Positions 42,001 through 63,999 of a DNA stretch of 64,000 nucleotides are shown here, one piece after another. The stretch comes from Candidatus Omnitrophota bacterium (GTDB lineage: Bacteria > Omnitrophota > Gorgyraeia > Zapsychrales > Fredricksoniimonadaceae). Location of the stretch: the NCBI GenBank assembly GCA_044225175.1, contig JBGAJA010000002.1, positions 216,949 through 280,948 of the forward strand, given 5' to 3'. The translations under genes and the position numbers were made by a program. Numbering within the stretch: the first letter of the stretch is position 1; the number at the start of each line of letters is the position of its first letter. The notes under the pieces were generated by a model. That model was not told the origin of the DNA and ran no database searches. It saw only the letters and a program-made list of their open reading frames with translations.

Positions 42001-45000
42001 GTAGTTTTATTCTCTTCGCAGCGTCCGCAAGGCTTCAATAATCGCCCGACACCGCATAGTCAAACAGCAACTCAATCATCTAACAGTGAGTCGTACAAGG
42101 ATTGGAGGCTGTATGAAAGTAAGCCAACCCTAGAAAGTGTTAAAGAGATATTTGCATTAGCAGCCGATTTCTTAAGAAAGCACAATGACCCCAACATGAA
42201 TCTTGTAGATGAATATTTGGAGTATGTCCGGTCTGCTCGCGCAACAGATGGCATATATCTAGGTAAGATATTTGATCCGGACAAGAATGATATTCAAATT
42301 TATATTAATCCAGAAGCAGTTCAGCAGAGTTTTGTGGAAGCGCAAGATCATCAATCGGAATCCTTATTTGTTCAAAATATAGTTTCTCAAGTCGAACGTG
42401 AAGCCATAGGCCTTAGATTTTATAAAGATTTTCCTGAAGTATTGAAAATCAGCGCTCCTGTTGAAGAGGTCATGCTGCACGGAAGTGAAATTCTCCCAAA
42501 TATCGAAGCTTTACAGGAATTTTCTTATGACAATCGAGACATTATTCGAGGTGCTGTAACTCTAAAGTATGCTTTGGAATTCTTTGAACTGACCCACAAA
42601 TTAGATATGCTTGCTTGGGCAGAAAAGCAAGGCTTCTATTCTCCTGTCCAGACAGAGGAGAGTCATACATTTTATGACCATTATGTCATGAGGGACCAGA
42701 AGAAGGACTTATTTGCCCGCCAAACCAGTCAATATTTCAAAGAGGACATAGAGCTTCTATTAAGAAGGAAGAACTCTTTTGACCAAAGTAATTTTATCTT
42801 AATGGAATATGCTTTAGCCCAGCAGATGAGGTATGAAAAGACAAATGGCCAGGAAGGCTTCAATCCTCATTTAGAACAAGTATTACTAGGCAATGCAAAA
42901 GAAACAGAGCAGGATAAAAAAGATTTAAGAAAAGCCTGGGATGAAATTTATCCGGAAGTTCAAAACTTAGTAGATCAATGGAATGCAAAGATCAATCAAC
43001 CTACACCCAAACCCTCAGGTCATGGAATGTTAATGAACTTTACAGGCATGAGGTCCTGGATATTTGGATTAGGCTTGATCATTGTACTGTCTTTGTGGGT
43101 ATTTGGCACTCGGGGAGCATTGTTTAGGGAGTCAGACTTCAAGCCAATCAAAGTTTTATTAAGTGCAGCAGTTACACCAGGTTTTTTATTAATTATCTTA
43201 ACTACAACCGCTTCTTTCATTGCTTCCTTCTTAGGCTTTCAACGCGCCTATCTTGCAATTTTTATCATCCCAGGCGTAATGTATTTTTTACCTAAAATCT
43301 ATTTCTTTATGATGGGATATTATGTCCTAAAAGGTGAGGACCAAGGAGACATCAGAATTAGGTTTAGAAAACTAAATAAGGATCAATACCAACCGCAAAG
43401 CCCCAATAAGTTAGTTTCTTTAGCCATAAAAGATACCCATCTTAGAAACAGAAGCAGGATGACTGTGGTTGTTCCAAGCAGTATGGCGACGCAAGCAGAG
43501 TTGGAGACCATTCCAGAGGCCATATCTTCAGGACTAAAAGTCAAAGTTGTGCCTCATCGTCCAGGTTTATTAAAATGGAGTGTGTTTGGTTTGATAACAG
43601 CGTTCTTTTTAACTCTAGGCTCCTATATGTATTATCAAGGTCAATTATGGAGTGTGCTTCAACTGCGGATTCTGCAAGCCCAGACACAAGTTTACATGGA
43701 TGGTAGAGTTGAAGATAATTTGCGAAGACAAATCAGATACGAGTTTAAAGCCTACAGATCATTGAATTCTTCAAATAGAGAAGGGCAAGAACAAATCACA
43801 TTAATTAAGAATATATTAAGACTCAACGACGTATATTTAATTTGCAATATCTTGGCAGAGATTTCTTCTTCTGACCGTCGTCATTATCAAAAAGAACTGG
43901 AATGTTTACTGGATGATGATCGACATACGGCAAATACCTCTTTGCTTCATCTACGCATAAGAGACTTGGCTTTACAAAAAATGGCATATAACCAAACTGC
44001 AGCAGCGGTCATTATTGCTCATCTTCCAGAATGGAATGACCCTCAAAAAGATTGGCATACCCGTTTATTGGCTTTCCATATCCTATCAACGACCATGTCC
44101 GCCACGGATACTCAAACCATCGAAATTATGGCAGGTATGATTAATACAGGGTTAAAAGAAAACTATCCAGAAGGTTATATAACCCAAGGTCGAAATCTTA
44201 ATTTTAATGGCCATCCGTATCTTCCTGTGAATGAACCCTCCGTCATACTCTTAGAGGCGGTATTACATAAGAATCCGCAGCTTTTATATGATTCATCCAA
44301 TGATGTTCCTGAGGAATTAAAGGGAATCTGGAGGATTAATCGTCAGGACGATAGCTTACAGCCATACATTGTTCAATCCATATCCCGGCTTTTCGAACAT
44401 TTTCTAAAAGAAGGAAATGATCGAGCTATCAATGCTCTTGTAGATATTCTCAAAGGCCGTCAAGACCTAGTTAACGCTATGCTTGAGAACATTCAAGACC
44501 AGAAGAACCAAAGAATTATCAGAGAGAAATTTGATGCTACACAAGAAAAGGCCGCTAGGGTGGGTATGGCATTTATGTCTGCCAGTGGCGCACCTATTCT
44601 TCTAGCACAGGCCCCTTCCACCAATGCCTTCACTGCTTTTTCTTGGCTAGATATAGTTGCTGCTATAGGAGCCGTGATGTTATTGGGCCTCATCATTAAA
44701 GTCTTGTATGAAAACTATCACCTGCGGACGGTCAAAGTCGATGCATTTCAATTCAGTGCCTATATGGGTGAAAGTATAAGTGAAAGCGTGATTTTAATGA
44801 TGGTAGGGATTGTTTTATGGCTGATTAATGTGTCTCAACTATTACTGGTTTTCTTAGGCATCTTAAACAGTATTTTATTGGGTAATCTATTTCCTCTCAT
44901 TCAGGCTTATGGCGTGATATTAGGAGGTTCTTTTGTGGGACGAATCATTATTACCTGGTTCGAATACCAAATTAAACATACTACTGGAATTGATAAATTA

Positions 45001-48000
45001 TTTGCGATGTATAGAGAACAAGGGATTATTTCAGCCCAAGACAGACCGCAGGCATTTGTGTATTCAAGAAACTTTACAAAAGTCCGATTATATTTAAATA
45101 ACCCAAGCTTTCTCTTTAAAGTTTTTGCATTTCTTTCTGTCCCACCTTTATATGTAGGAACGATTAGATGTAAGAAAGAAGAACCGGCTGTTAGGTTGAT
45201 GGATCCAACAGATAAACTCAGCATGAGACGGGGAGCAAGTCCTTCTCTATTTATAGTTTTCATGGCAGGAATATTTTCTGTTGGAATGATGGGCACGATC
45301 GGAGTAATCATTATATGTTCGCTGATTCTAGCTGGGATTGGGATTTTGATAGTCAAGAGGATCAAAAGAAATGTTCTTCCCGCGCAAGGTTCCAACATCC
45401 TAGTATTTAATCCCCACGGAATCAATCCTATCGGCTTAGAGTTTACGGATTGGCTCATTAAAATCAAAAAGGATAGAAGCACAGTTAGCTTAAGCCCTGG
45501 CCATTTGGGTCTTTTTGATTTGGGCGGACTTGTTGTCCGAAGACCAGGAAGGTTTGAAAGTTTCAAAAAGATTAAGTTTATAACTCACAAATTTCTTCCC
45601 AAGCCTCAACTCCAGGGGTTGACAGGAAAGATGACAAGTAAGCCTGAGGAAATCGTCTATTTTTCAAGTTTGACAGGAGAAGAGCAAGAAGAGAGAGCCA
45701 TTGATATATTTGCGGATATTGCCAATATTGCTTATCTAGCTGACATTGCCAAGAGATTTGGGATTAAGAAATTCTATTATTATGTTCCTGTCATCAAACA
45801 ATCAACATTGTTGACAAGGCAAGTGATAGCTTTAGCTGCCGGTATTATTAAACATGATCGTTCTGTCCATATTGTTGAATTTAATCGTCTAGAAAAGTCC
45901 TTGGCGTCCCAAGGCTATCATCTTAAGCCAGTCACCAAAAAAAGGTATCCTGCCGATATAAAACATGATTCTGAAAAGGAACGTGTATTTGATTTCTTGG
46001 CAAGGATATCTACGATCGGATTAGATGAGCGCTTAGTCCAGCGTATCACTAAGGCACTTTTGGATGCAAAGATTAAAGAAGACTTTGGCTCAAGACATGC
46101 TCTTAATAAAGATAAGATCAAATGGTTTTCCCTTGAAAGCTATTTACCTGTCTTTGCTTTTTTAAAGAAGGCAGACCAAAACCTCCTTGATCTTCTTTTC
46201 AAACGCTGGATGCAATTCCATCAAAGTCATGGCAACCTCTTTGCAGAAACATCCCGTGGGTTCGATCTGCATAATATTCTAGATAAATCTGTGTTTAGCT
46301 GGATCAGTAAAGACCCTCCAGCAAACTCTTTTGTCTATCTTTATAAAGGGATCGACAGTGCAAGCAGGTATCAAATCCGTCCTCTCAGAGAACAGTCTCC
46401 TGTAAGTATGGATGATATGAAGTTTGTTGATGAAAGGGCAAAAGTAAAGAAAGCCATGGCCTTGATTGAACGAAGGATTAGGACAAAGATGAGGGAAGTC
46501 AATCGAATTGAAGGAGACAATGAAAGGCAAAGTAGGTTAAGAAGATACTATGGTGCCCATCATTTAATCTTGGATCAATTGACGATTATTGGAATTGATA
46601 GTCCTTTGCCATTGGTCTTTTGTGACATGGACCGTATGGTGGCCCGCATCATTCACTTAGGCCGTCATCGTTTAGTCACATATTTTCCTCTTAAGTTTAT
46701 TCAAAACAGCTCTATTGAAGAACTAGCAGACATGATTTATTACAGCATTGATTGGTTGACCACATTTCATAGACATAGACAAGATCAGCATTTCTTTGAA
46801 CAAACAGGAATAAAACCATCCGGTCATATGGATCCTATTATTTGGGACCCAGAACCCATTGCTGACATTAGATTACAGGAAATACTAAGTAAGCGAGGGG
46901 AAGTTTTTTATGGTCCTAAGAAAAGCAATCGATTTGGTGTTTCTTTTGAGCACCTCCAGGCTAAGATCTATAGCTTAATGGAAGACCATTTGAAGCAAAG
47001 ATACACATTGTTGCGCCGCCTCGTGGAACAATATAAGGAATCTCAAAATGGCATGCAGAGATATTTCCTTGAATTCGCTCAAGAAGGTCTATTCAGCGAT
47101 CAATTCCAGAATAGATCCAAATCAATCGCTACTCAAAATCGAGATGTTGCCAATGCTCTTTTAGGGCTAGGATATGTGACAACCGCAGATCGTTTGTACA
47201 CCAATGCACTGGCCATTGATAATTATTTAGTGATGGGAGCTAATGGTATCCAACCCACCGATACGCTTATCAGACATTTGTTTCACTTTTTGTATCACGG
47301 ACAATGGCAGAAATGTCTCAATACGTTTGAAACGTTATATTGGGGAAAGAATTATCTTGTCCGTTTTAATGGGCAGATTGTGAAAATCAACCTTCGCTGT
47401 CCTCCCACAAGTATTAATGGAGTACCCGTGGATGAAAAAATGAGGGAAGACTGGTATGCGCAGCTGGGGTATTCGATCTTTAGTAATAGAGATATTTTGG
47501 ATACTTTCTTAAGAAAGGCATATGACGTTTTAGACACATTTGGTTATATTTACTCGGATGATCCAAAACAATTGAAATTGATGGATGATTTTAAAATACA
47601 GTTACTCGAAAGTATTAAGCGTTGGATGTTATTAGCGCAAAGAGGGGAACTGGTGGGTGATAAACCTACAGAATCCGATCCTAATGTCACTATCATGCCC
47701 CCCCCTGTTGTTAAAAGATTACACGATCTTAAGAATGGTAAATCAAAAAAGGTATCCCATAGAAGAGGTCATGTATTGACCCCATGGTTGATGGGAAGTT
47801 TAATTGCTGCATTGGTTTTAGTGATTGTCCGTGCCGTTGTTCAAAAACGACGTTTATTAAACCATTTGAATCTTGCTCGTAATGAAGCTCTCCTGCGTGA
47901 ACAATTAGTTTTCAAATTACGCTCTCAAATCAGCCAAGAAGAAGCCTTCAAGTTAGGACCTATCTTAAAATCCTGGAATTTCTGGGATGATCCATCACCT

Positions 48001-51000
48001 TTAGAACACCATGTGTATTGGTGGAACTACTCTATGCGAGACGCTGTACTAGTGTTTTTACATGGAGATCTAGTTGGAGCATATTCTTTTAGATATGACA
48101 CAGCGGATTCCCCTGAAGATGCGTATGGGGAAGGTATTTTTGTGGTGGATTATTTAAGAGAGATGGGCATAGGGCGAATGCTAAGATGGCATCTTTTAAA
48201 TTATTTGAAAGAAAATAGCATTAAATATTTCAATATCCGAAGACCAAGACAAACTTTGGAAGCACAAGGTTTTCACTCCGCTTTAATTAAAGAATTAAAC
48301 TCTCATGAACGAGGTGTTAATTATGATGCGGACGCCCAGCCTCAGGAAATCAAAGTCCTTTTAGAACAATATGCTTTAAGGGATGTGTCGACTATACAAC
48401 CATATTTCCCTCCACGAAAACAATATAAAGATAACCCCATGGAACGTGTAATTCTCAGCACTCCGTCGTTTTATCATGAAGCCGTGGCCAGAGAATTTGC
48501 CCAAAGCCGTCGTTATCCAGCTTGGATTGCCAGTGCTGCAGTTTGCAACCATCCTTATATTTACCTGCCCTTGGTCCAAAAGATGTATGAGCGATTGGGA
48601 AATTTACGAGGTCGGACAGTGGCTGAGCTTGGCTGTGGTTCCGCCGTGGGAGTTGAAATCTTTAGAAGGATTGCGGATGCCTATGTGGTTGGGTTTGACT
48701 CTTATGAACCCTTTGTCAATTTTGCTCAATCCCATGGTTTGCCCGTCGTCCATAGTGACTTGATCTCTATGCCCGCGGATTCCGAAGAAAAATTTGAAGT
48801 AACATTCTCAGCTCGTCTTTTGGATGTGTTGTGTGTTTTTATCGATGGTGAACCAATAGAACTATTGCATCCACAGAAATTACGAACGCTTAAAACGATT
48901 GAGCGCATGACCAAAGGAAATGGACTCAGCATCCATCAAACCGAATACCCGATTCCTTTTAGCGATTCTGAAATAGAATCTACAGGTTTTCGCATCGAAG
49001 AAATCAATGAAGAACGAACATTAATGGTCCTTTACAAGCCTCTTGTTTCTACACACTGCATATTTATTTGTTCTTGTGGGATGTTAGTGTTAGCTGGAAT
49101 CACCCAAGATACTTGGCTGGCCAAGATTTCTCTTCTAGTCATGGTCGTGGGAGGGTTATTCGCCTATGTATTTTCAGCCCCCTCATCTTTCCAAACACCT
49201 ACTTCTGTTCAAGATTCAACAGAGCAGTTAATCAATGATTTAAATGGATTTAATGCAGAAAACTATTGGCAGCAAGCCAAAGATCTCCTCCAGCGACAAG
49301 AAATTTCATCAGAGACGAATAAAATACAAAAAATATATAAATCTATTCTAAGAGTCATGGTCATCATGGGAGTGGGTATTGGATTTGCTTTTTTATACGG
49401 AGGAATAATGATTTTTGTTGGTCCAATACCTGCACATAAGACAGCCTATATTCTTTTTACTCTTCTTTATGCGGCATTGATGGTTGTCCTTATTTCTAGG
49501 TTCTATATATGGATGGACATATGGGAATCCAGCATATCTCGATACCCTAATAATAAATTAAAAGCAATTCAAGAGCATAATCTTATCGTGATTAGAGAGT
49601 TGCAAGGTCGATTTGAAATAATCAGTACATTTTTGGATAATCCAAAAAACAGAGAGGTTTTAGAAGCCTTTAGGCTTTTATTGCAACGTGTAAATTTGAT
49701 CATTCGGCAGGATAAAGAATATGGAACTGCAACGATTTCAGAATACATAAGAAACATGCTGTCACAAGTAGAGGCTTTAGAAATAGTAATCCAAACTAAA
49801 CGTGCATGTGGCAAGGGAAATGATCGAAAGAGCGGGGTAGACCCTCAACCTTCGGAGTTTGTCAAACAGATGCATCAAGCATTAAATTCAATAGGCGCCA
49901 CAGTCCAGCTTAGTGATTTGAATGAAAGTCCTGAGGTCATTAGTTTTGTTGGAAGGCTTTTGTTGGACTACTTGGCAAATCTTTCAAAATACAGCGCTCT
50001 ACCCCCTGATTTAGTAAAATATGGCACGCTGCGTACAGTTTTGACTACACTTTTTAATCATTCCTCTGACTACCCAGATTTTCAGGATCTTCTCAAAGAA
50101 TTAAAGCAGTTAATCGATTCTCATTTAAAATCCATCAGCTTTTTAAACCTTTTTGGGTTACCTAGAGAAGAATTACTCAGAATCGTAAAATTGAGTATTT
50201 CTACCCATGAGCTTCGAAAAGAACTAGGGGTCCAGGATATGGAGGAAACAAAGCTTTGGCAAATGTTTGCTGGGATTATTCAAGAAATTCTAAGAGATAC
50301 CTTTCCAGTGCTGTATGTCACCAATAAGCAATTAAAAGATTTGTTACTTCAGATACAGGAGAACAAACCTCTAGAGCAACCGGTTGCCTTTGACACCCGC
50401 CTAGAGAATTTGCTGAAAGATCGCTTGAGTCCTTTGACTATCTTGAATACAAGTTTCCTAAGGACCATTCGTGAAACACTAGTCCAATATGGTTATCTTC
50501 CTGAGCCATATGGCGTGGTAAATATGCTTAGAACGAACTGTTTTTATAAGCTTCCACAATTGGGGAATAGTAATCAGCAAAAATTGTTACGGTCATTAGA
50601 AGGAAAAGGATTTGGAAAGATACGTATTTCATTCAAATTTCAAAATCAACCGGTTAATAACATTGGTCTTCTTTGGGAGAAATTAGAAAACATACAAAAC
50701 ATTTGGCTCGTTTGGGTGGGCCAAGATGAACAAGGGGACATTTATCATGCCCCAAGTGCGGAGGAATTAAATGAGATTCCTACCGATAGACTGATTTTAT
50801 TAAAAGATGTACCCAATAAAGAAAAAGCATGGGTAGGTGCAAAATCAGAGGAAAAACCATTATTACCTCCTCAAGGCAGAGCAGTAGCAGTGTCCGAGGA
50901 CGTTGTCAAAATCGGCTTTGAAATGGAAGTTCCTGAGCGATTAAAGAAGGTTTGGGAAGCTATTCGAGATCTCTTGGTCCAAAACCCTAGACGAGATATT

Positions 51001-54000
51001 ACAGTGCAATTGATTTCCCAGAGAATGACAGAGTTGGGAGAGTCAATGACTGAAGAAGCCCTTCAACTGTGGCTGCATCAATCGAAGGGAGCTCCAGCCG
51101 TAGCCCAAGTTGTTTCACTCATTAATTCCATCAAAGACAAAGAAGGACGTTTAAGACTCTTTATTGCTCTCAACGAAGAGTTTCTGCAATTATCGGATTC
51201 ACACATCACAAGTCTTTTGGCTGATAGTGAGGATGCAACCCTATCAATGGACAGTCTGCGTAAGCAAATAAAGGCCAAGCTTTCAAATCACCCTATTACT
51301 TCGGAAGACAAGAAGTTAGCAAAGATATTTCTGAGATTGAGCTGGGCGGCCAGATTGGAATTTATGGGGCATAACAATAACGGAGCTGTATCAGGTATAT
51401 CTGCAACTAAAGATCCCTTGGCGCTTCTTCGCAGTGAAGTAGAAGTCTTACAAAGCAGTGGATTAAATGATTCTGGAAGACTAATGAATGTCCTCCATAG
51501 GCTTATTTCTTTGGTTGGCGAGAATAGTGTCATCGACATGATTGGAACGGTAGCGGAATTATTAATCAAAGAATATGAAGAACATGATTTTGACAGCTTA
51601 ATTGATGTTTTAAGGAAGGCCCATGGAAAAACTGCGGGTAAAATCATTGCTTTGATTCTCCTGAGAGGGACAGCTTTGAATCAAATACGCATGATAGACA
51701 CCCTTAAAGAATCGAACTCTCAAATTAATGGCTTGGTCTTTTTGGTAGGGAAATTAAGAGAATTACAGAGTTATATTGAGCTTAAGTCATCTAAGTTTAT
51801 TGTAAAGAATGAGGGACATGCAGATTGTACAAGACCGGGGGTATATAAATTTGGACAAACAACTGCTCAACAGGCAGAAAGCCTTTTTGGTAGAGCTCAT
51901 CGTGCGGCAGAGATAGGTCATAAGGAAAACATTGCAGAAGCTAAGAGTATTGAAGATGCTTTGATTAATCGAGGTCTTGAAGATATTAAGAAGATATTGA
52001 AATATGTTCAGGTCATTTTAGAGACAATCGTTGATCAAGAAGCAAGGGTAACACAGACATCTTTAGTTTTGGAGTCATATATTGGATTTGCTGTTTTGTT
52101 TCAGAAATTAGAACGTCCCCTTCAAGAAATCAATGATATTTTGAAAATTGCCTTTGAACTTATTAACCATTCGCATCACAGCTTGTATCAATCAAGTGCA
52201 AACCCCATTTTTAACCAACATACGGATCTTGCAAGCAAGGCTTTTGAAGATGATGGACCTTTAGCAAAAGAGATAGTCATTCGTTGTTATTTGCTAACGC
52301 AAAAATATACATTCTTGCCTGTGGAACAAAAGATATTGGGAAGTTTATTGATTAAGGCCGGATTGACCCAGGAAGCTTTACAGTTAATGGCAGTTATATC
52401 TCCAACACCGCAGCCTGAAGACCCAAGATCTATTATTAGAAGAAAAATAGGAAAACTTAAGAGTGCCTTGGAAGAAATAGATTTAAGAAATTTCTCTACC
52501 CCAGACACGTTTGATGCGCATGTTCATTCCTTAGTTCAAAAATTATTGTCAGATGTTCATTGGAACCCGGGGTTTGATGAGGCTAAAGAATTTTCTACTT
52601 GGCTAGAGGAATTTCAGCGCCAAGGACGGGAACTAATTAGAAAGCGCAATGACCACCATAAGACCGGAAAAATCCAAGAATTAATCAGAAGTGGCCAAGA
52701 AAGAATAGATAGGGCTTCCAGAAGAACTCAGAACATGGATGAGTTTATCACAATCGTGGATGCTATCAGGGCAGAGTTCGTTTCAGACCTAGAACGCACT
52801 GAGATCCAAGAATTTCTACAAAAGATCCCAACTATTAAAGTCGATAAAGCTATCACAGAAAGCCGAAGAAGAATCCAAGAAATTCGTCCTGGAAGATTTA
52901 AGAGTCCGGTTGAATTTGAACAAGCAGTTAGAGGAAGAGTTTTACCTTTTGTTGGTGCTAATTTGGAACATCCTCATGTCATTATATTTACTGGGGAAGT
53001 TGAGCAATACATCATTCAAGGAAAAGATAGGATCACAACTCATCAAGAGACGGCAAAGCGTTTACATTTAGAAGGACAAATTAGAGCTTCTTCTCAAAGG
53101 GCTAGAAATATTAATCCTAAGAATTTTGAATTTATAGCACAGTATGAAAGAAAAATGATTTATGTCATATCGTCGCGGGTCCGAGAAGAATCTCAGATTA
53201 AAGAATTAATTCAAAAGCTTTTAGAACAAGCGAGACCCCATTTCGAAGAGATCTATCGGGCTAAACAACAGAAACAAATTAGAAATACTCATGTTTTGCA
53301 AGAAACCAGCCGGCGTCTGTTAAATGCTGCCCGGGAGAATATAATTCGGGCCAGAGAAAGACTGGAATCTTTGGCCCAGAAACTGGAAGAAAGAAAAAGT
53401 CATCAAGAGAAAGTGTCTTTGGCATTTCAACGCCTGCATGAGAATGCTTCAAAGATTATCGAGAATAAATTGATGAATACTATGGAGTCGATGGATGTGC
53501 TTAAGGCCGCTATGGAAGAAGGTATTTCTGAGGAAGTCCGTATACTTCCCGCATTTGCAGATGTATCCAACCAAAAAATGCAAGAGATCAAAGACAAAGT
53601 TGTCTCAGACACATTGATTGTCATTGCAAATTTTGATCCTAGAAGATATATCAACACAGATGATTATCAAAAGGCCTTAGAAGCAAATGTTCCAAAGATT
53701 GTTTGGGACGTTCCTCATTTGTACGCAGCATGGGAAGAAAAATTAGAAAATGGAGCACGGTTAATTGAACAAAACACCAAAGGAACCATAGAAAGTGTTT
53801 TAAGATTTGTATGGAAAGATTTAATTAGTGGAAATTTCAGAGGTGAACCAAGGAGCTTTATAGAAAACAAACTTCAATTATTAATGTGGCATCCAGATAC
53901 TCAAAGACTAATCGGGGAGACTTTAGAGAGCTATTACACACGTCAAGGGCAGCAAACTCAGCCTAATTCCCAAGCTCCACCTTTTGAACAAATTGAAGAA

Positions 54001-57000
54001 ATATCTGTAACTTCACCTGCTGAACAACTACCTCAAGAGACCAGCCGAGATCCAGATCAATCGATAGATGAAGCTATCATCTGTGACAAAATTAAAGAGA
54101 TGGAATCGCTAAGAAAAATTGCTAAAAACCATCGAGATATTGAATTTATTAAAGGAATGTTACGAGATCTTACAGCACAGACCAGTTCAATGTCTCTTTC
54201 TAAGAAAACAAGAAAGCTCATTCATATGCTTCGAAAAAAAATTGATTCAGCTCGAGGGATTCCTGGTCAACAACATCCAAGTAGGAATGATGTGGATTAT
54301 GAGATATGGCGCATTGACACTGAAATCCCCGCCAGCGTAAGCATCATTAGGTTAGATGCACAAGATAAGTTTGCCCAAGGGGCAATTAAGGCGATTGCAT
54401 GGCTTAGGACTAATGGATTTATCGCGATGGCAGAAGTATTGGAACAGATATTGAAAGAAAATAATGTGGAGCGAGGCCCCTATAAAGGTTTCTTAGCAAC
54501 GACCCATTCTGTAGAAGCTCCTCGAGGCAATAGAGAGCTTTTCATCATGAAAATAAAATTATCAGATGCAGAAGAATATGCTCAATACTTAACTGTGGAT
54601 GAAATCGCCGCGAGTTTGATTCATGAAGTAGGTGCCCTTCCTCAGTTTGGTTTCTCGGATAGAGTCAATACCCAACGCCATCAAGATTTCTTAATGGAAA
54701 TTCGTCAAGGACGCTCTTTTTCTCTTTCACGAGCTTCAAGGAAAGAAGAATTACTCAAGAGCCTGCACTTCTTGTGGAGATATGTGGTTGCAGATAATGA
54801 AGCAGCGATCCAAAATGTTTTAAGTCAATGGAAAGAAAAGGGCTACAAAGTTGGGACATTCTGGCTGACAGGACGTGATGCAACGATGAACAAAGGCCAT
54901 GAAGGGACATTCTTTGCACATCCTAATAAGATCCTTCATGATTTAATCGTTTCAACATTGGATGCCCATTATGATCCAGCTCAAAAACCTTTAGCTCATT
55001 TTGCGCTTGCCATTGATGAGGTATTACGACGACCCAGAAATGTAAAATCCAGTTTTGCCTTGTGTGTTCTTGTGTTCGATGATCATGATGTGATCGTAGC
55101 TGTGATTGACAGTGAACAAGGCCTTAATATTAGCGATGAAATACAAAAAGAACGATCCAATGATGTTATTCAAAGTGCAGGACTAGGTATGGAACGGTTT
55201 TTAGAGCCCCATAGTAATAACGTGACAACGAGAATATCTTCTCAACTTCAAGTCTGGAAATCAGATCAAAATCGAACCTTCAACCGTTCTCAACAACAGC
55301 ACAATTTAATCTCTCAAGGTGTGTTATGGGACATGCAGCTTCTTTATGATTCTTTAATATTAAAAGTTGCTCTTACGCCACTGATCTTAGGATTTGGTAT
55401 TGCATGGATTGGTTTTGTTAAACTCATAAGCCTTAAGAGTCTTCTTATATCCATAGGTGGCGCTCTTTTTGTCCGTGCCGGAGGTGGAGTAGAACACCTG
55501 CATTTGTCTGCATCACTTCCTTCTATATTTACAATCGTTGTAATTGCTTTTGCTGCTTTTATGCTCATGGTCCTACCAGGCGACCAAGCCCCCGGGGCAA
55601 AACTTAAAAACAAACAAAACACTTTAAACAACCTCTTTGCAAAATCGAAACGTGATCTTGAGGCAATTTCAATGGATGATCCAAAGGAATTGATCAAAGA
55701 CCAGAATTGCTTAAAGATATTCCAAGAATTCATAGAAAAGATCCGATGGTCTTATTTATTGAGCTTAGCAAGAAAACCAGAAAACAAGGCCGCCCACTTT
55801 GAAGTCAACCAATACATGGCAGAATTAGTTTTAGAGATGCGAAAGGCTTTGATTAGTAGGTATCAAGAAGTGTTAAATAATTTAGATACTCAAAATTCAC
55901 TAGATAAAGAAGCTAGAAGGTCGATAGCCAGTGCCCTCGAATTGCAGATAAGAAAGCAAATGCATTTGATTGTGCCTGAACACATCGAGATTGCCGTTGC
56001 AGGAGATGAGGTGTTCTTCTTTTATAAAAAGATCATGGTTCGAGTATATTCAAAAGAGAAAGAACATCATCAAGAGCTGATTGAGCTTTTATTTGAGAAT
56101 AACAAGATTGAGTCTATTGCTGATGCAACGGATGCGATCAATGGGTATCAAATAAAAGTTTATGACATAGACCTTCAAATTAAAGTTGGGCTGCAATTAT
56201 TCTTAAAAACAAAGCTAGAAAGTTTCGAACAACAGATTTTAGATCAGTTGGAAAAATCTCAAAGTGAACCTAGGACAGAATCACCAGATCGGCATGATTT
56301 TGCTATCCAGGGATTTGCCTCGCTGCTTTTGACCAATCAAAATCTCAGAGTATTCTTTAAGAAAGCCTTAGGCAAATATTTTAAGCCATTGTTCCAGTGC
56401 ACCTTAAACATGAAAAGTATTTCACCTGAATTAAGAAAGAAAGCCTTAGCTGCAATTGGTGCTTATTTTCTTTTAAAGCCAGAGCAAGTACGACTTTCAG
56501 ATATGGATTCTGCAGAACATCTAGTATTTGATGGCTTTGCAGGGCAGGATGTTCCAGGACGATGGCAAGCCATGCCAGGACATGAAAAGGATAAATTGCC
56601 TGTTATCATCGTGATTACCCCTCAGATACCTGAAGGATTAACACAAACTATCCAAAGACATTTTAAGACCCATATTTTATATCTGAACATCACAGCAGTG
56701 ACTACCCAAGGAGTTGAATACAATAGCCTGGGGCACATAGAAAGTACTAATCTTCAATATGTGTTTAATCAATTAAAGCAACGTTTAGATGTTTTAAAAG
56801 ATGACAATGTTGTTATTGCTTCTGGACAATCAGCGGCATCTGCTCTTTTATGCATAAGAAAGGCATGGGACATTCTTCCTATGGCAATGAGATACAATGA
56901 TAGTTCGCTTATCTTGGATAATTTTATTGATGACTATCATACGTATCTAAGAAGAAAATTAAGAGAACTTGATGGGCTCATAGATGAAGAAACTGCAACG

Positions 57001-60000
57001 GACGCAATGTCTATAGTTCAAGAAGTTATTTGGGCCAATAGGCCAAACCAAACACTAAAAAGAGTTAGATTAAAGAGTTCTACCCCATTTAGAAACGTAC
57101 AAAGAACGGACATCCTTTGGTCTCCTCAACATTTAATTGGAGCTGAATCGTGGTCCACCCCTGCTTTATTTGCTTTTGATCAAAGAATGTATGAAGAAAA
57201 TCATAATGATTATCGAAGGTTATTATTAAGAATATTGAATTTAGATAAGTATCAGAATTCAAGAGGTCTTATCCATGCCGTCCTTGAATATCAAAGTACA
57301 CAAGAGCCAGGAGTTAATAACTATAAAAGCCGCATTCTAGGTTTTCTTAATCGGAATAATGTCCTTGGTCGCTACAGAATAACTGCGGTTCCACCTGTAG
57401 AACAAAACATAAAGGTGTATTCTAGGAAAGACTTTAAAAGCCTTCCAACGATGTTACCACCCCAGGAGCCTACCAAGAAACGAGAGCATTGGGACACAAG
57501 CTGGCCTGAACCAACGGCCGTCGAAATAGAGGATGCCAAAGCAGTTCTAAAAAAATTATCAAATCAACCACGACCAGATTGGGGTACCAAGTTTATCCAA
57601 AGTCCCTATGGAGATCTAAAATCATCTAAATCAAGAATATTAAGAGCTCTCTATTTTGAATATCCGGATATTGCAGCAGCTATTCTAGCTAGTGCCGGCG
57701 TTAATGTGCATGGAAACCTAAACAAGATCCTTTGCCCCAATAGAGATGAGGAGCGCATTGAATATATTCTTCTCATTAATCTGTTTAACATGTCTTTAAC
57801 TTTTTGCCTTCTGGATCCTCCAACGGTTATCAAGGATCCCAATAAGACTACAGGTGAATCCTTAAATATTAAGTTTGATGTCAGAGGCATGGCAGGAGTT
57901 TTTGAACACCTTCCTTCACACATTGCCTCAAGTATTTTGTACCGTGTTTCAGAACCTAATTTTATCCTGCTTGTTAAAAGAACGATTGCTCATGTTATTA
58001 AAAAACAAGGAATTACAACTGGGGCAATAGAGAGATTACTTTTTGCAATGCCGCAATCTAAAAGAGATCTGATTTGGGAGAAGTTACTGCCAAAAGAAAG
58101 AGAATTCTTTGGGGATCAGCCTTCTTTACCTGCCCCTGTGCATCATACAGCCCGTGTTGATAAGCCAATCCCACGCGTTGCAGGAAAAGGAGAGGGAAGG
58201 CTGGTCGTAATACGCTCCGAGCATCCTACAGTAGATGAAATACGAAATATTCAACCAGGTTCGATTGTAGCGGTTGAATATTTACCTACCTCAGACACCC
58301 ATGTAGGAACATTTCAAGGTATTATCACATTTCGTCCAGAAGGAAAAACATGCCACGCCCAAGCTCAAGCCAAGCAATGGGAAATTCCCCATGCTTTAAT
58401 ACCTGGCCCAGAATTTTTGATCGAATGGGAGGGCAGATTTATTCGGATGACTGTTGAAAGAGACAAGGTCAGTTTTGCAGGAATTAAAGAGCATGCGATC
58501 AAAGACAAAGAGGTTTCAACGGCTATTGTCTTACCTACTGTGGACCTTTCCCCAGAAGCTCCATTAATACTTCCTTCTGGAGACATCAGACTTTCTCGAC
58601 CTACGTTGATGGGTTATAAGCCAGCATCCCTTAATCTTTTTTCGCAGTATCCTATCCAATTATCTAATACATCTATTACAGCAAGTGTTGAGCAGGGCAT
58701 GGGTCTGACATTTAAAATGTTTCTTTATTTATTAGAGAAAGAAAAGAATAAAGATACCTTTTGGAAATATAGAGATGACGTTATTAAATCTAAGAATGAT
58801 AAGGATTTACAAATAGCTTTGGAAACTCTAAGAAACTTTATCGAAAGGGCCTTTATTTCTTTACATTATGAGCCTGAATTTGAAGAGCTTTTCAAAGATC
58901 TAATTGCCATGGTAGAAAGTTCTGGGGCATTTATTCGCCTGGCAACTAACGCAGAAAGTTTGCCGGATTTTCCTGGATTTGGATCAGGTAAATATCTGAC
59001 TATTGCACATGTTACCTCTCGAGAGGAGCTTTGGGAGGCAATCCCAAAAGTCTATGCCTCTCTTTGGAGCTGGGAAGCCTATATGGAAAGACAACAGCGG
59101 GGTGTGGACCAGTCCAAAGTATTTTCTGCTATATGGGTCGTGCCTTCACAGCCTTCTATCTATGCCGTCAATATCCACACCTCAGACGTATATCTGCAAG
59201 ACCCCAATAGAATGGTCATTGAAATAGTTTCCGGTCAAGGTCAAAGCCTGGTCAGCAGTGATGAGGAATTTGCAGGACTGCCGACATTGATTGTGTTAAA
59301 CAAGGCAACAGGTGAAATTATTGAACAAAGCCCTGGAACAAAACAAAATAAGATCATTCTAAATGACAAGGGAGGCACTCAAAGAGTACCCATTGAGGAA
59401 ACAGAGGAATTTCTAAACTTAAATGATGCTCCTGAATTAATCAAATCACTTTGGGAAATAGGAATGGCAGCAGAAGGATTCTTTAGAAAGCAATTAGGAG
59501 ATGATCTGAGTCACCAAGAAATAGAAGCTGCGATCATTAAGAAAGAAGGACGTTGGCATATTCCTTTATTGCAGACCCGCTCTGCTGGCAATATTAACCA
59601 TGTTTCTGCTATGCATGCCTGGTTATTTATACCCATTGTTCCTATGATGATGTCCACAATAGGTATGGACGGTTCCATGATCATCCCTGCAACTCTGCTT
59701 GTGCTGGGTGTTTTGATGATTTCGACTTTCCGTCGATGGTTTTCTTATAAAAAGCTCATCGAAATGACCCATACCATGTGGTTTAAAGTTTCTTCCATGC
59801 TGGCAAGCATTACCCTCCTTGGCTGGATCAATTTAGAATTCGTAGCCCCACAATTTCCCAAAGACATATCTCTTCCTTTAAAAGTCTTACTTAATTCTTT
59901 GATTTTTATGGTCTTTACACTTGATTTGGATTTTTTTGCCCAGCGTATGTCGAAACAGGGAGTTTTGTTCAAACAAACTCTTGCAATAATTCCGACTGGA

Positions 60001-63000
60001 CTTGTGATGGGGGTCATTTCTACTTTAAGTTTTTGGTACTTTAATAAATTTGTAGCTCTCAATGAACATGTGGGTTGGAATAATATTTCATCTGCATTTA
60101 TGTTTATAGTGCCCTATATGATTTTGACCTACTTATTAGTGATCGTTCTTAAGGCTAAGGGAAAGAACTTAAAAGAGGCCATTCAATGGAAGATATTTAA
60201 ACAAGATCTACTCTTTGTGGTGCTGGGAGGAATACTTATATTGGTTTTGATGATACCTGTGACTACTCTATTTATGAAAACTGATCATGCGGTGCCTTAC
60301 GCCATCATCAATACCCTAAGAATTGTTAGTCTTATGTCCACAGTAAAATGGAGAACATCTGTTTATTCTGCTATTGTTGAGATCATTCGTGGTAAGGATG
60401 GTCAGGAGAAGCAGAAGGAAGCATTCTTGTTAACACGAGGTCATTCTGTAATACGAAGCTTTATTGTCGTTTTTCCGGAATTTGCGCCATACGCAGAGAT
60501 AATTGATGGATTCACTACCCAGTATTTCAGCGCACTCTATACATGGGCCACCAATAAAGAAGGGTTTATTGTTAAAAATGAACAGTTGCGCAATAAAAGG
60601 GCGTATTTAATTTTCTACGGCGTCTTTGGGCCGATTATTTGGTTAGTTAAGAAATCTATTGAAAGAAATAAAGCAAGTCCTCAGTTAACCAATCATACGC
60701 TGATAACACCTGTTCAAGCTATTGAACCACCACTTGCTCAGGACAATTTAGTTGAAAAGCCCCCCATTATTTTTTCCTTAACGGATATCCAGTTTGAATC
60801 TGCTAACCAACCTTTGATGCATCAGCCTGAAAGAGCAGCCCCACAGCCTCCATTAGGGATTGTGTCATTGGATCCTGTTCCAGCAGACGTATTTGCAGTT
60901 AGGCAGGGAGCATATTTCCAGGACCAAACGAATATTCTAGAAGGCTTTTTGAATGACACAGATTATGAAAACTTAAGAAGCCAGGTACGGACCCAAATGC
61001 AAAAAGATCCAAAGCGTTTTACAATTCGTCTATCCTTGGATCGTTTGAACTGGAAAGAAGATTTTGTTCTTGTGAATTATGAAGGCTGGAGATTTTTATT
61101 CCCCAAGGCATGGGTGAAAAGAGAGCAGAATGGCCATCTTTTAAGGTCTGCGATTGAGCGTGCCTTAGTCTTTGAAGATCCTGGTATGCGTTTGGGCAAA
61201 GGGGAACCATTTATCTTTTTTCCTGTTAAACATAATTTGAGTTTTAGCGCTAATAAAGGAGCTGCAGATCATTTTGTGGCAGATTATGAGAAGGATAGAT
61301 TCATTTTGGTTAATCGCTCCCTGATTCCATTGATCTCCCGACTAGAACATAGATTCCGAAGTGCTGGTTTAATTCTTCTTCAAGTCCTTATTGGCCACGA
61401 ATTACGAAGAAAAATCTACCATACTAACGATGATGCTACTGAGAGAGAATATGCGTTATTGAGTCAGGAAATCTTTGCAGGATTGGCAGATATTAATATT
61501 GAAGAAATTTTTAATGCCTTTCAGAATGAGGGGCTTATTAATGACTCTACAAGAAAAGTCCTGATGCCTGCAGAAGTTAGCCGTTTTGGGGCCAAGGACC
61601 ATCGGTTGGTTAGAATGTTAAACCGTGCTTTTGTAGGTGGGAGTGTGATCAAAGAAGGAAGTCAAGTTCTTGAAGTAGGTGCAAATCATGGAATTCTAAC
61701 CAGAAGCTTAGTCGAGGCCGTACGGGCCCAAGGTATTCAACATGTTTCATTTGTGACGACCGATGATTCTCAAAAGGCTTTGGTGGATACGGCACGTCTC
61801 TTAAAAGTCAGAATGGGAGGGTATGATGAGGTGCAGGTACGCCAGCCTTTTGCCAAGAACGAGCAAGAACTCTTTGATGTAATTTTTTGGAACCCCTCAT
61901 GGCTGCTTAATAATCTGGCAGAAGGAAAATTAGGAGAGTATTTAGAATTCTTCTCTACTCGATTATCTGAGACCGGAAGGATTTTTATTATTTTTCATGA
62001 AACTAATGCTCAAGAATTAGATCTTCGTTCTATTGCTTTGAATCAAGGCATGAATCCTACAGAAATTGATGTGTACAAGACCAAGCATGGACGGATTGGA
62101 TTATTTGAGTTTGTTTCCATAGAAAAATTAATGAAAGCAGATCAAGAAGATTTTCATATTACGGCCTATGATTACCGAAGGGAATCTGAAAATTGTAAGA
62201 AGACTAATCTGGCTGTTTTAAAATATTATAGATTTATGGCTGAAGTTGTTGAAAGGACTGCCAAGCATTTCATTAAACCAGAAGGTGATTTCGAGAAGAC
62301 AAGACGAGAAATTTCTTTCTTCAATCAAAAAAGGTCTGGTTCTCACTGGAACCCTCTTATTGAGAATGAAGAACGCCTAGCCCAATTCTTAAAACGAAAC
62401 CTTCGTCTAAGTAAGATGCAAGTAAACATTGTCTTGGATCTTGTCAGTCTTTCGATGAGAGCAATAAATAAAGAAAGGGCCTTTTTCTCGCAATATCAAT
62501 ATGTGATGAGTGCTATAGCCCCTAAAAGAATCAGCACCAAAATTCCAAAGTCATTTGACGAGCAAATTAATTATTTTAAGAAGACCCCAGAAATTTACGG
62601 TGTCTTCTTATTAGGCACTGTACTGCTTTATCTAGGGTGTAGACCACTCATTAATGAGTATCGAATATTTACGGATGCTCTCAATGCTGTTTGTGTGGCA
62701 ATCATCATGTTGATCTTTTCAGACCCCTGGTTAAATAAACTTGCAGAATCAATTTATAAAAGAGTTTTTCATTCCTCTAAAGTAAGTAAGAAGATTAGAA
62801 TCTCTGCTTCCAAGCCCACATTTACATGTGCAATTAAGGATATTGCAAAACACACACTGGTCGTTAATTTCGTTGATGCCACAAAACTGGAGATATATCT
62901 GGATCACCGTGGCAATGTTCTCGTGATGCCCACAGAATCCCATTTAGATAATCAACACTTTCAGTATGGCAGAGAAAAACCAACACAATTATTGGCTGAT

Positions 63001-63999
63001 GAGGAGTTGATTGTTTCAGGGAAAAATTATATATCGGGGCATCAATCAGGAGATTATCGTAAAACACATCGTTTATATTATGAAAGAGCTGATTTAGGGG
63101 ATGTATTTAGAATCATAGTCACTCAAAAAGGAACATTAAAGATTCAATTGATGGATCAAAAAACAAGTCTCGATATTCACTGGGATTATTACCAAACATT
63201 TTTTGAAAGAGAAGAAGTAATTATATTTGCATTGACCTGCCTGACTGTGTTACCTGCAAGTCTAATATTTTATTCTCACTATAAAAAGGTATTTCTTGCC
63301 GATAGTTTTCTGGCAATGATATTTGAAGTTTGGTTGGTTCTTATTCCATTTGTTTTAGCTTACAAAGTCATTCCATTAGATCGTTTAGATGGGACAAAAA
63401 GAATATTTCTTAAGACTTTTTCTTCTAAACAAGCGGCTAAAGAAATCAAATATTTACATTCTTTCAGGACAAAGGAAAAGAAAGTTTCTCAACGTATATT
63501 ACGTAAGCTTCAAATATTGGCTAGAACTGTCTCAAAGGATAATAATTTAACTGAGGCACAGAATAGAATTTTAAACGACGCAATCCGCGATGAATTAACA
63601 TCGTGGTTGAGAGAATATCCAAGTCTTGAAACAGTATCGAGTATTATTGCTGGCTGGGCACAATCTACTGATTTCGATTTTACAAAAAAGATTGCGATGA
63701 ATGCAGTGTCGGAAGTCTTTTCGGTACAGAAAAAGCCCATAGAAAGACTTCTTAATCTAGGTCGTTTTGAAGGAGACCACCATGTTTCTCATAAAGAGAT
63801 GGAGGGAGATATTATACCTCTAGAATCTGCACCTTCTTATGAGGAACAGTTAAGTGACCGTCATCTTTGCGGGTTAAAGTCTACGAAAGATATTCAGGAG
63901 ATATTAGGTCATTTGGAATCTATTGATGTGGATGTTCTAAAAGAGTGGCTGGAGATCAAACTAGATATTCTTTCCCAGCGCAATGATTTGAAGATTCTA
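1..63999 (+). CDS. Internal fragment, partial at both ends, of a giant ORF of about 21,330 codons encoding a multidomain polytopic membrane protein. No start or stop codon falls in the window.
   Basis: Codon-by-codon manual translation of the frame starting at nt 1 met no TAA, TAG or TGA across the whole window. Other frames hit stops about every 20-70 codons. The ORF track lists no closed + ORF in this frame. Codon bias is consistent, and the translated sequence contains recognisable protein motifs. Confidence 0.85.
691..836 (+). other. Proline-rich linker (PLAPPPQPISTAPVVPSHNPTPPAPGPVPLPVQMPVPNTAAGNSPPPF)
   Basis: Direct translation. Pro content is above 35% over about 48 aa. Confidence 0.7.
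1000..2290 (+). other. Acidic low-complexity region rich in Ser/Asn/Thr/Val/Glu, probably disordered or surface-exposed
   Basis: The translation is dominated by S, N, T, V, E, G and A, for example NAENGENNAEAQVGQAVRVEVPVSQ and SNDSNTVARLNDVGNG. It has no hydrophobic core pattern. Confidence 0.5.
7500..8290 (+). other. Beta-strand-rich porin-like segment with alternating aromatic and polar residues
   Basis: The translation includes TTVQYRDITVGVSRAIGQPRYGFTAAYKNFSTYYSYQGGEKAYGAAANFKVFEDLQANVEVYHSATAKYGVRFDFEQRIAQKWGVNVG. This shows the alternating hydrophobic/aromatic pattern typical of membrane beta-strands. Confidence 0.35.
12150..12260 (+). other. Single predicted transmembrane helix (AWANIISVLIGLISFILIFGKPLAWIGQIV)
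   Basis: Uninterrupted hydrophobic stretch of about 25 aa in the translation. Confidence 0.6.
13080..14180 (+). other. Cluster of predicted transmembrane helices, about 10
   Basis: Successive hydrophobic stretches of 20-30 aa, for example FVVALGVSALASIGLIWM, YFVAAILAVTVLTFFMY, LLLSISMLVLIALGWFA, AGWFTGLTIFIAGVGFIY and VFAIAVLGLAGLLGVPYL. They are separated by short charged loops. Confidence 0.65.
16185..17715 (+). other. Cluster of predicted transmembrane helices, about 12-14
   Basis: Hydrophobic stretches such as IIVIASVLYLLNVVLFGLSFFV, LLPVLALTYISVLFSAF, MPVFMILAGILAVFIM, VVVYTGALALTILILM, LLLFLLLYPLLGLAG and FVMGSLLIIGIVTAILISL. Confidence 0.65.
17983..18085 (+). other. Ala/Glu/Lys-rich coiled-coil-like segment (AADKVESDRIAAEKKLANEKAEEEIKKDIEIL)
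   Basis: Direct translation. Composition and heptad-like pattern. Confidence 0.5.
19078..19352 (+). other. Ala/Glu/Lys/Asp-rich coiled-coil or low-complexity segment (AARKEAEEAARAKAAEDKAQADRIAAENKLAEEKAAE...KAAADKAAADKAEADRVAEAKRLADEKAAQDKKAADQAAKDAA). It resembles TolA or IF2 linker composition.
   Basis: Direct translation. About 90 aa with more than 45% Ala and the remainder E, K and D. Confidence 0.55.
19355..19432 (+). other. Predicted transmembrane helix (FIQTILGILLIVLGSAGGLLAIMWGI)
   Basis: Hydrophobic stretch immediately after the coiled-coil segment. Confidence 0.6.
19648..19755 (+). repeat. Imperfect tandem repeat, 2 x 54 bp, encoding NVPAVQPPTRAGPSWLHI and NVPATQSPTRAGPRRLQI
   Basis: The two adjacent 54-nt units are aligned by eye. 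They begin aatgttccagctgttcaaccaccaactagagctggacca and aatgttccagccactcaatcaccaactagagctggacca. Confidence 0.7.
20205..20385 (+). other. Third Ala/Glu/Lys-rich coiled-coil-like segment (QDAQAEADRQAREEQRLLDEKKAAEEKEAKEKAEQAALARRLEEEQKAAADQAAKEEQ)
   Basis: Direct translation. Confidence 0.5.
21400..23690 (+). other. Large beta-strand-rich domain with outer-membrane beta-barrel-like periodicity, about 760 aa
   Basis: The translation shows dozens of short alternating hydrophobic/polar strands with aromatic girdle residues and Gly/Asn/Asp turns. Examples are TFGFTTLDLGFEKDEWQFGGLIEVNSLRL, AWVSYADGKTAWLGFINK, GTYSWQGHAVSIYVFTS, LFGVTELKYNGELFKAGIQVEYTKGF and TGWQLGATYKWVFVRRNF. Confidence 0.45.
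23905..23940 (+). other. HExxH motif (FYHELISHIANHEN), a possible zincin-type metal-binding site
   Basis: Codons cat gaa ctg atc agt cat at 23905-23922 encode H-E-L-I-S-H. A further HE follows 4 residues later, and several Glu residues lie 15-25 residues downstream. Confidence 0.3.
23990..24265 (+). other. Two predicted transmembrane helices (IFETVLLGIIFVWGAIIIIRSIF and VHTLVLVIAVIGTILALILT)
   Basis: Hydrophobic stretches in the translation. Confidence 0.6.
24295..24321 (+). repeat. Copy 1 of a perfect 27-bp direct repeat gaaaatagggagttgaccctcatttct, encoding ENRELTLIS
   Basis: Identical 27-mer found at 24766-24792. A degenerate copy gaaaataggcagttgacccc lies at 24679-24698. Confidence 0.8.
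24766..24792 (+). repeat. Copy 2 of the perfect 27-bp direct repeat, encoding ENRELTLIS
   Basis: Identical to 24295-24321. Spacing is 471 bp, a multiple of 3, so both copies are in the same frame. Confidence 0.8.
24860..28900 (+). other. HEAT/Armadillo-like alpha-helical repeat array
   Basis: Recurrent helix-turn-helix repeat signatures. Examples are GNKDISYMALRAAQAFPDPGVFKAL, DDPQVQIQGAIYAGKIL, DHDPRIRSHAALLVGQMKD, TDQTRILALLALRQSTD and TRSVLTLTAALEVASQS. They resemble PBS-lyase HEAT-like repeats. Confidence 0.45.
29880..30010 (+). other. Two predicted transmembrane helices (IFTIAAVVLLGYRWFIV and WWDTAVIATLYFNVSAY)
   Basis: Hydrophobic stretches. Confidence 0.5.
31495..32350 (+). other. 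Cluster of predicted transmembrane helices, about 8
   Basis: Hydrophobic stretches such as LPTMILMALAIPQMVPALYLLLALSLAGVAGYFL, AVFRAISFLFAA, ILLLPFSGTTLGLLYF, IASVALTGLFLIEAVIELGYIAY, IMFIVGGFILLGASVLF, IFAGLGALTGFYLAVMEFVF and AAIIHLSILFWATSSIFGLV. Confidence 0.65.
33829..33864 (+). other. Matrixin/metzincin-like motif HEFGNYLGWSHQ, with the second zinc-ligand His replaced by Asn, and a possible Met-turn Met 8 residues after the last His
   Basis: Codons cat gaa ttt ggt aat tat tta ggc tgg tct cat caa. The matrixin consensus HEFGHSLGLSHS matches at 8 of 12 positions (H, E, F, G, L, G, S, H). The downstream sequence is QENQDLEMRFW. Confidence 0.4.
37685..41030 (+). other. Very large transmembrane region, about 25-30 predicted helices, interrupted by a soluble insert at about 39200-39740
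   Basis: The translation is almost continuously hydrophobic. Examples are MVLALIVAGVIVVGLGILAWPL, ILLYAGSLGLLTIVF, LFCATILGIIIMMAW, FAMMVVPAIIMVVWLGL, VAVFIMGVGGAVLWPLILALV, IFVVVVAIITIVLMTG, LGVLVLSTVILITTL, LVGFWAFVTLFILLYIVLVIGSMLVL and LVGVIFVVMMKCVSVLAAFLISVFFI. Confidence 0.7.
39091..39097 (+). repeat. G7 homopolymer tract within the coding sequence, encoding GVGGAV
   Basis: ggggggg read directly. A run this long is unusual in a sequence of about 39% GC. Confidence 0.6.
43050..43335 (+). other. Cluster of about 4 predicted transmembrane helices
   Basis: WIFGLGLIIVLSLWVFG, PGFLLIILTTTASFIASFLGF and AIFIIPGVMYFLPKIYFFMMGYYVL. Confidence 0.6.
44565..45360 (+). other. Cluster of about 8 predicted transmembrane helices
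   Basis: IVAAIGAVMLLGLIIKVL, VILMMVGIVLWLINVSQLLLVFLGILNSILLGNLF, VILGGSFVGRIIITWF, FLFKVFAFLSVPPLYV and LFIVFMAGIFSVGMMGTIGVIIICSLILAGIGILIV. Confidence 0.65.
47698..47705 (+). repeat. C8 homopolymer tract within the coding sequence (atg ccc ccc cct, MPPP)
   Basis: cccccccc read directly across the line break 47700/47701. Confidence 0.6.
47980..48240 (+). other. GNAT acetyltransferase-like motif region (GIFVVDYLREMGIGRMLRWHLLNYLKE)
   Basis: Resembles GNAT motif A (h-V-x-x-x-x-R-x-x-G-I-G-x-x-L), preceded by beta-strand-like segments VLVFLHGDLVGAYSF. Confidence 0.25.
48430..48960 (+). other. Class I SAM-dependent methyltransferase-like Rossmann-fold region, with motif I VAELGCGSAVG at about 48619-48654
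   Basis: Translation RTVAELGCGSAVGVEIFRRIADAYVVGFDSYEPFVNFAQSHGLPVVHSDLISMPADSEEKFEVTFSARLL. This matches motif I (hh-E-h-G-x-G-x-x-x-G), an acidic post-I residue (VVGFD) and a motif II-like FEVTFSA. Confidence 0.4.
49055..49525 (+). other. Cluster of about 6 predicted transmembrane helices
   Basis: CIFICSCGMLVLAGI, ISLLVMVVGGLFAYVF, VMVIMGVGIGFAFLYGGIMIFVGPI and ILFTLLYAALMVVLISRFYIWM. Confidence 0.6.
55350..55585 (+). other. Cluster of about 3 predicted transmembrane helices
   Basis: VALTPLILGFGIAWIGFV, LLISIGGALFV and IFTIVVIAFAAFMLMVL. Confidence 0.55.
58180..58480 (+). other. Phospho-histidine swivel domain of the PEP-utilising enzyme family (PEP-utilizers-like). The candidate catalytic His codon is at 58354-58356.
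   Basis: Translation GKGEGRLVVIRSEHPTVDEIRNIQPGSIVAVEYLPTSDTHVGTFQGIITFRPEGKTCHAQAQAKQWEIPHALIPGPEFLIEWEGRFIRMTVERDKV. This aligns by eye to the family pattern G-x-a-x-G-x-x-x-v-i ... GdILVtxxtxPxw ... GIvTxxGGxTSHAAIxARExGIPaVvG ... G-x-x-v-x-v-D-g. Confidence 0.5.
58700..59580 (+). other. PPDK_N-type ATP-grasp domain (PEP/pyruvate-binding domain of PEP synthase, pyruvate phosphate dikinase or rifampin phosphotransferase), located downstream of the His domain in a permuted order
   Basis: AFIRLATNAESLPDFPGFGSGKY matches [35 protein letters not shown] matches [60 protein letters not shown] matches [47 protein letters not shown]. The terminal HQEIEAAIIKKEGRWHIPLLQTRS matches the DIEWA...LQARP signature. 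Confidence 0.5.
59600..60345 (+). other. Cluster of about 8 predicted transmembrane helices immediately after the ATP-grasp domain
   Basis: AWLFIPIVPMMMSTIGM, MIIPATLLVLGVLMISTF, VSSMLASITLLGWINL, LLNSLIFMVFTLDL, IPTGLVMGVISTLSFWYF, FMFIVPYMILTYLLVIVL and LLFVVLGGILILVLMIPV. Confidence 0.65.
61560..61930 (+). other. Second class I methyltransferase-like Rossmann motif region, with a degenerate motif I VLEVGANHGILT at about 61666-61701. It is possibly catalytically inactive.
   Basis: Translation GSQVLEVGANHGILTRSLVEAVRAQGIQHVSFVTTDDSQKALVDTARLLKVRMGGYDEVQVRQPFAKNEQELFDVIFWNPSW. It parallels PRMT-type VLDVGSGTGILS ... FDIIISE. A-N-H replaces the canonical G-x-G. Confidence 0.3.
62590..63375 (+). 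other. Two clusters of predicted transmembrane helices
   Basis: IYGVFLLGTVLLYLGC, AVCVAIIMLIF, VIIFALTCLTVLPASLIF and FLAMIFEVWLVLIPFVLAY. Confidence 0.55.

Follow-up and report, generated by a model that had tools for sequence, protein, structure and literature searches.

The question raised by this locus is what chemical task is carried out by a phosphotransfer module that lies within a giant membrane protein. The window, i.e. the whole stretch of 64,000 nucleotides of DNA that was analysed, was observed to be open in frame +1 across all 63,999 bases, giving 21,333 codons with no stop on translation, and the translated segments quoted in the preliminary description of the locus were found to be real. 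Giant proteins of the Omnitrophota are almost wholly unannotated and only four Pfam families were detected here at E<=0.01 when the 21,333 residues were scanned in five overlapping chunks. The Pfam scan placed a GT48 glucan-synthase domain in the same ORF (E=1.7e-50), the region of which is 50% identical to the giant ORF of a Candidatus Omnitrophota MAG contig, and the closest homologues of the module are found in Omnitrophota MAGs. Hydropathy across the whole window groups the hydrophobic segments of the ORF in many clusters, and the module is located at the end of a soluble stretch of ~1,340 residues that is bounded by the upstream TM cluster (Table 1). No further copy of the module was found elsewhere in the window. 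Two small antisense ORFs (57651-57923 and 59745-60062) were dismissed as by-products of the long coding frame.

Table 1. Features of the giant ORF and of the module, in window coordinates.
Feature	Position (nt)	Strand	Residues and remarks
Giant ORF fragment	1..63999	+	21,333 codons; continues past both window ends
Upstream TM cluster	55339..55590	+	aa 18447-18530; hydropathy
X domain	57469..58125	+	~210 residues; immediately precedes the His domain; conserved in closest relatives
Phosphohistidine swivel (phosphoryl-carrier) domain	58147..58488	+	aa 19383-19496; profile match
Catalytic His codon CAC, His19452	58354..58356	+	motif G-K-T-C-H-A, sequence read directly
Linker, swivel to ATP-grasp	58489..58566	+	gap between both profile matches; flexible
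ATP-grasp nucleotide-binding domain (PPDK_N)	58567..59601	+	aa 19523-19867
Lys19540	58618-58620	+	conserved ATP-site residue
Arg19646	58936-58938	+	conserved ATP-site residue
Glu19842	59524-59526	+	conserved ATP-site residue
Gln19858, Arg19860	59572-59580	+	conserved ATP-site residues
Downstream TM cluster	59602..60285	+	begins with a hydrophobic hairpin of 44 residues (aa 19868-19911; D-G turn); about five more helices follow

Both domains named in the preliminary description are present. A profile made from 17 homologues, from which the window was excluded, has exactly one match in the giant protein and this match is the swivel domain (E=2.5e-28 at a nominal database size of 1e6 sequences). 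The two Pfam models by which the module had been expected to be recognised did not perform equally, as PF01326 gave a significant match whereas PF00391 remained below threshold in the His region (E=0.026, 14.6 bits against a cut-off of 23.1). The Pfam model GWD1_pHisD (PF22973) did not match the His region of the window at E<=10. A family profile of 18 sequences (the window and 17 homologues) has a match (E=6.8e-4) to 2fm4, the isolated phosphoryl-carrier domain of PPDK, and its His part aligns to residues 382-461 of PEP synthase with an i-E of 1.6e-7, GGRTSHA included. As had been anticipated, His19452 aligns with the His of this motif in PEP synthase 8a8e, and all of the 63 aligned modules have it.

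The second domain was matched by PPDK_N (PF01326) with E=3.5e-16 and 59.9 bits (cut-off 27), over residues 558-863 of the translation of window positions 57001-60600. These correspond to nucleotides 58672-59589, close to the limits of 58700-59580 given previously. Conservation of the ATP site holds as well, with its Lys and Glu invariant in 63/63 modules and its Arg and Gln kept in 62. The motifs picked out earlier sit on conserved blocks of the family alignment, which comprise GSIVAVEY, GKTCHA, EGRFIRMTV, AESLPDFPGFGSGKY, ASLWSWEAYMER, IEIVSGQGQSL, EIEAA and LLQTRS. A model of the module predicted from the homologue alignment folds with a pLDDT of 89, in agreement with the folds proposed before; without the alignment the pLDDT is 38.9. 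In the predicted model the linker contains a block of 10 residues with a mean pLDDT of 64, and the adjoining blocks are at about 87-96. With a PF01326 domain that retains its ATP-site residues and a mobile phosphohistidine domain that retains its His, the module belongs to the dikinase superfamily (PpsA/PPDK/RPH/GWD).

The preliminary description considered the second domain to be PEP/pyruvate-binding, which was not borne out. This domain binds nucleotide, and the PEP/pyruvate TIM barrel (PF02896) was not detected at E<=0.01 in the 21,333 residues, scanned in the five overlapping chunks, nor in the Pfam scans of homologues. The module is therefore not PEP-utilising in the metabolic sense.

The order of the two domains in the window is His domain followed by ATP-grasp. 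Positions 9-91 of the family profile align to PpsA 382-461 and positions 205-479 to PpsA 89-363, so the order is indeed the reverse of that in PEP synthase, PPDK and RPH. It had also been taken as an oddity of this locus, and here we differ. An exhaustive search of representatives returned 679 representative clusters at E<=0.001, and among the best 150 of these the His domain precedes ATP-grasp in 120 proteins. The same order is observed in plant glucan,water dikinase, where the His domain (aa 931-1050) precedes the ATP domain (aa 1069-1387) and a swivel mechanism has been described (PMC13553574). The order is thus "reversed" only against PEP synthase, since His-first is usual in the nearest relatives and in plant GWD. 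Many His-first relatives are labelled GWD1_pHisD and PPDK_N by Pfam; GWD1_pHisD was found in 6 of the 18 sequences of alignment A1 (the window not among them) and also in P0036, P0110, P0121, P0124 and P0128. One relative cluster carries the JGI name 'phosphoglucan,water dikinase'. Word-indexed homologue searches were uninformative for such a divergent family, as only 4 weak matches were obtained with the module, and the family profile returned only RPH/PpsA-like proteins of canonical order. To our knowledge no member of the His-first bacterial family has been characterised.

We therefore read nucleotides ~57470-59600 as a unit of three parts (X domain, phosphohistidine swivel and ATP-grasp) that appears to be an intact dikinase and is probably a member, with plant glucan,water dikinase, of the His-first branch within the PEP-synthase/PPDK superfamily. 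We put the probability of this reading as a whole at roughly 0.7.

The X domain is a previously undescribed domain with the motifs HWxxxWPxPTxxE...A and LRAxYFxYPDIAAAIL. A profile made from the window and close homologues occurs once in the window and matches P0006, P0007 (2 copies), P0009, P0011, P0013, P0014 (4 copies), P0032, P0038, P0042 and P0051. This profile has no match in Pfam and none among PDB chains at E<=10 except a short weak match to FliG (E=0.006, 38 residues), which was taken as an ARM-like helical coincidence. A protein-based metagenome scan returned no relatives of X together with the module, and an exact 77-mer search gave no match among genome or metagenome contigs. X is regarded as a candidate for acceptor binding or docking.

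We infer the steps at this locus from the known dikinase chemistry of PPDK, PEP synthase, rifampin phosphotransferase and glucan,water dikinase. On the cytoplasmic side of the membrane, ATP would bind to the ATP-grasp domain, His19452 would attack the beta-phosphate with release of AMP, and the gamma-phosphate would be discharged, probably to water. The phospho-His domain would then swing away from the ATP site on its flexible linker and hand the phosphate to an acceptor held elsewhere in the protein. The best candidate for the holder is the conserved X domain, which sits where GWD has its acceptor-side central domain. A cytoplasmic location is consistent with the hydrophobic hairpin and with the Lys/Arg-rich loops on both flanks of the module, the loop after the upstream TM cluster containing 6 such residues in 30. 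The argument combines simple hydropathy with the positive-inside tendency, and topology predictions for Omnitrophota giant proteins are called unreliable in a passage of West-Roberts et al. 2023 (bioRxiv 10.1101/2023.11.21.568195).

As acceptor we would guess first, and tentatively, at a sugar polymer or a glycan intermediate on which the same giant protein acts. Such a link is suggested by the GT48 domain in the same ORF, by P0032, in which CBM48 and a GlgB-like alpha-amylase domain are fused to X and the module, by P0036, in which a GT5 starch/glycogen-synthase domain is fused to the module, and by the stand-alone homologue P0012, which sits among sugar-nucleotide and glycosyltransferase genes. 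Glycogen-synthase-like GT5 enzymes are the commonest glycosyltransferases of Omnitrophota giant proteins according to a passage of West-Roberts et al. 2023. The association with glycans among homologues comes from a few fusions and one neighbourhood and is weak. The gene neighbourhoods of the closest homologues were mostly uninformative. GT48 is encoded 42 kb further upstream and its product is extruded, so a cytoplasmic kinase is not obviously able to reach it. An enolase gene was noticed 6.5 kb downstream of P0009 and was judged coincidental.

A more specific version, possible but doubtful, is that X-His-ATP-grasp might be a bacterial polysaccharide,water dikinase acting on a glucan or other glycan that the glycosyltransferase domains of the same megaprotein make or process, with X as a new polymer-binding acceptor domain. 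Starch-type polymer phosphorylation is known to us in plants and algae and their relatives only. If such an activity were present here, it would extend this modification to predatory ultra-small bacteria and the giant proteins would gain a defined ATP-consuming chemical step.

The preliminary description suggested energy-coupled or regulatory phosphorylation. On such a reading the phospho-His would phosphorylate a partner protein or some other domain within the giant protein, or the ATP-driven swivelling would gate the adjacent TM cluster. The module is indeed fused to a TM cluster as was claimed, the 44-residue hydrophobic segment, a hairpin of 2 x ~20 residues, beginning 6 residues past LLQTRS, and an arrangement of module followed by TM recurs in six relatives (P0008, P0011, P0013, P0051, P0025 and P0058). 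The swivel domain also has the fold of the HPr-phosphorylating domain of Enzyme I. In 19 further large homologues the module is mostly accompanied by no Pfam domain or by HEAT repeats, with single cases of sugar transferase, GNAT, PTS-HPr, response-regulator and HATPase_c, the last three of which (whether in one protein or in several) would suit a relay. However, a TM segment within 100 residues past the module was observed in only 7 of the 66 homologues with sequence beyond it, while 64 other homologues have their C-terminus no more than 40 residues past the module. The TM regions that trail the module are not homologous among relatives, nor does the downstream TM cluster of the window show sequence similarity to them, and the Pfam scan gave no HPr-like or receiver domain at E<=0.01 within the window. 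We also know of no characterised ATP-grasp dikinase that acts as a phosphorelay or gating module. Regulatory or energy-coupled phosphorylation is thus not the best-supported reading and we consider it unlikely.

Still less likely is a small-molecule phosphotransferase of the RPH or phenylphosphate-synthase kind, which would activate or inactivate a metabolite or toxin. The NCBIfam dikinase models reach only 20-54 bits against cut-offs of 598-1700 and cover the ATP domain alone, the rifampin phosphotransferase model NF041857 among them (28.8 bits, cut-off 999). The ATP domain is structurally similar across the whole superfamily, which carries no information on the acceptor. The domain order and the acceptor domains of these enzymes, compared below, also speak against such an assignment.

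A decayed and catalytically dead remnant serving as a structural spacer has a slim chance of being correct. In its favour, the sequence has diverged strongly, the His domain scores below the Pfam threshold, and substitutions are present at positions conserved elsewhere (NAES for NAED, GSG for GAG and QEIE for QDIE). These substitutions are conservative, though, the module keeps its catalytic His as well as Lys, Arg, Glu, Gln and Arg at the ATP site, and the modelled fold is confident. As for a true PEP synthase or PPDK activity interconverting pyruvate and PEP, the Pfam and NCBIfam family names and a statement in a passage of West-Roberts et al. 2023 would favour it, but with the TIM barrel undetected, a different domain order and NCBIfam PEP-synthase models that match over the N-terminal third only (54 bits against 598), it is very unlikely that the module makes phosphoenolpyruvate.

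The dikinase reading introduces no new enzymatic principle. The presence of a phosphotransfer domain in a giant membrane protein, described earlier as unexpected, has a precedent, as PPDK_N in giant, TM-rich Omnitrophota proteins is already reported in passages of West-Roberts et al. 2023. The "pyruvate phosphate dikinase" domains reported in these giants have so far been read as enzymes of central metabolism. A module of GWD architecture with a partner domain and with no detectable PEP/pyruvate domain shifts the expected function to ATP-driven phosphorylation of another acceptor. The module also offers a compact testable fragment of about 710 residues (aa ~19157-19867) containing X, His and ATP-grasp domains. 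The search of representatives, in turn, brings to light a large family of bacterial dikinases with the His domain first, some of which are joined to enzymes of glycogen branching or glycogen synthesis.

Among known systems, the host protein is closest to the 'archaeovorin' giants of the Omnitrophota, with which it has in common a giant ORF, many TM clusters, HEAT repeats, glycosyltransferase domains and PPDK_N, as described in passages of West-Roberts et al. 2023. A SecA-like domain is reported there for most full-length members, whereas Pfam detected none at E<=0.01 in the 21,333-residue fragment, the window being smaller than the whole gene. The passages of that preprint on PPDK domains assign them to pyruvate/PEP interconversion and describe neither the His domain, the domain order nor an X domain. 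By its giant ORF, TM regions, HEAT repeats, glycosyltransferase, PPDK_N and Omnitrophota affiliation, the ORF is of the archaeovorin type.

For the module itself, PpsA and PPDK share both domains as homologues (profile E=1.2e-65 to PpsA 8a8e, both aligned), as well as T-x-H and the motifs of the ATP site, but the module is circularly permuted and the TIM barrel goes undetected. In RPH the order is ATP-grasp, rifampin-binding domain and His domain, opposite to that of the module, which has no such acceptor domain. In the HpeI/phenylphosphate-synthase type, HpeI is a separate ATP-domain subunit, and no corresponding acceptor domain is found in the window. Compared with plant and algal GWD1/PWD (EC 2.7.9.4, 2.7.9.5), the module carries no starch-binding CBM45 or CBM20, and Pfam found no carbohydrate-binding module of any kind at E<=0.01 within the window. 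At the position of the helical central acceptor-side domain of GWD (9HA9) it has X, for which the PDB search gave no sequence similarity beyond the short FliG match, and its His domain, unlike that of several relatives, falls below the GWD1_pHisD model. The module also belongs to a bacterial host, where it is contained in a membrane protein of >21,000 residues and is followed by TM helices rather than by a C-terminus. With GWD1/PWD it nonetheless shares the order of its parts, in which a His domain with a conserved catalytic His, a flexible linker and an ATP-grasp domain follow an upstream domain that is helical in those enzymes, and an architecture free of the PEP/pyruvate TIM barrel.

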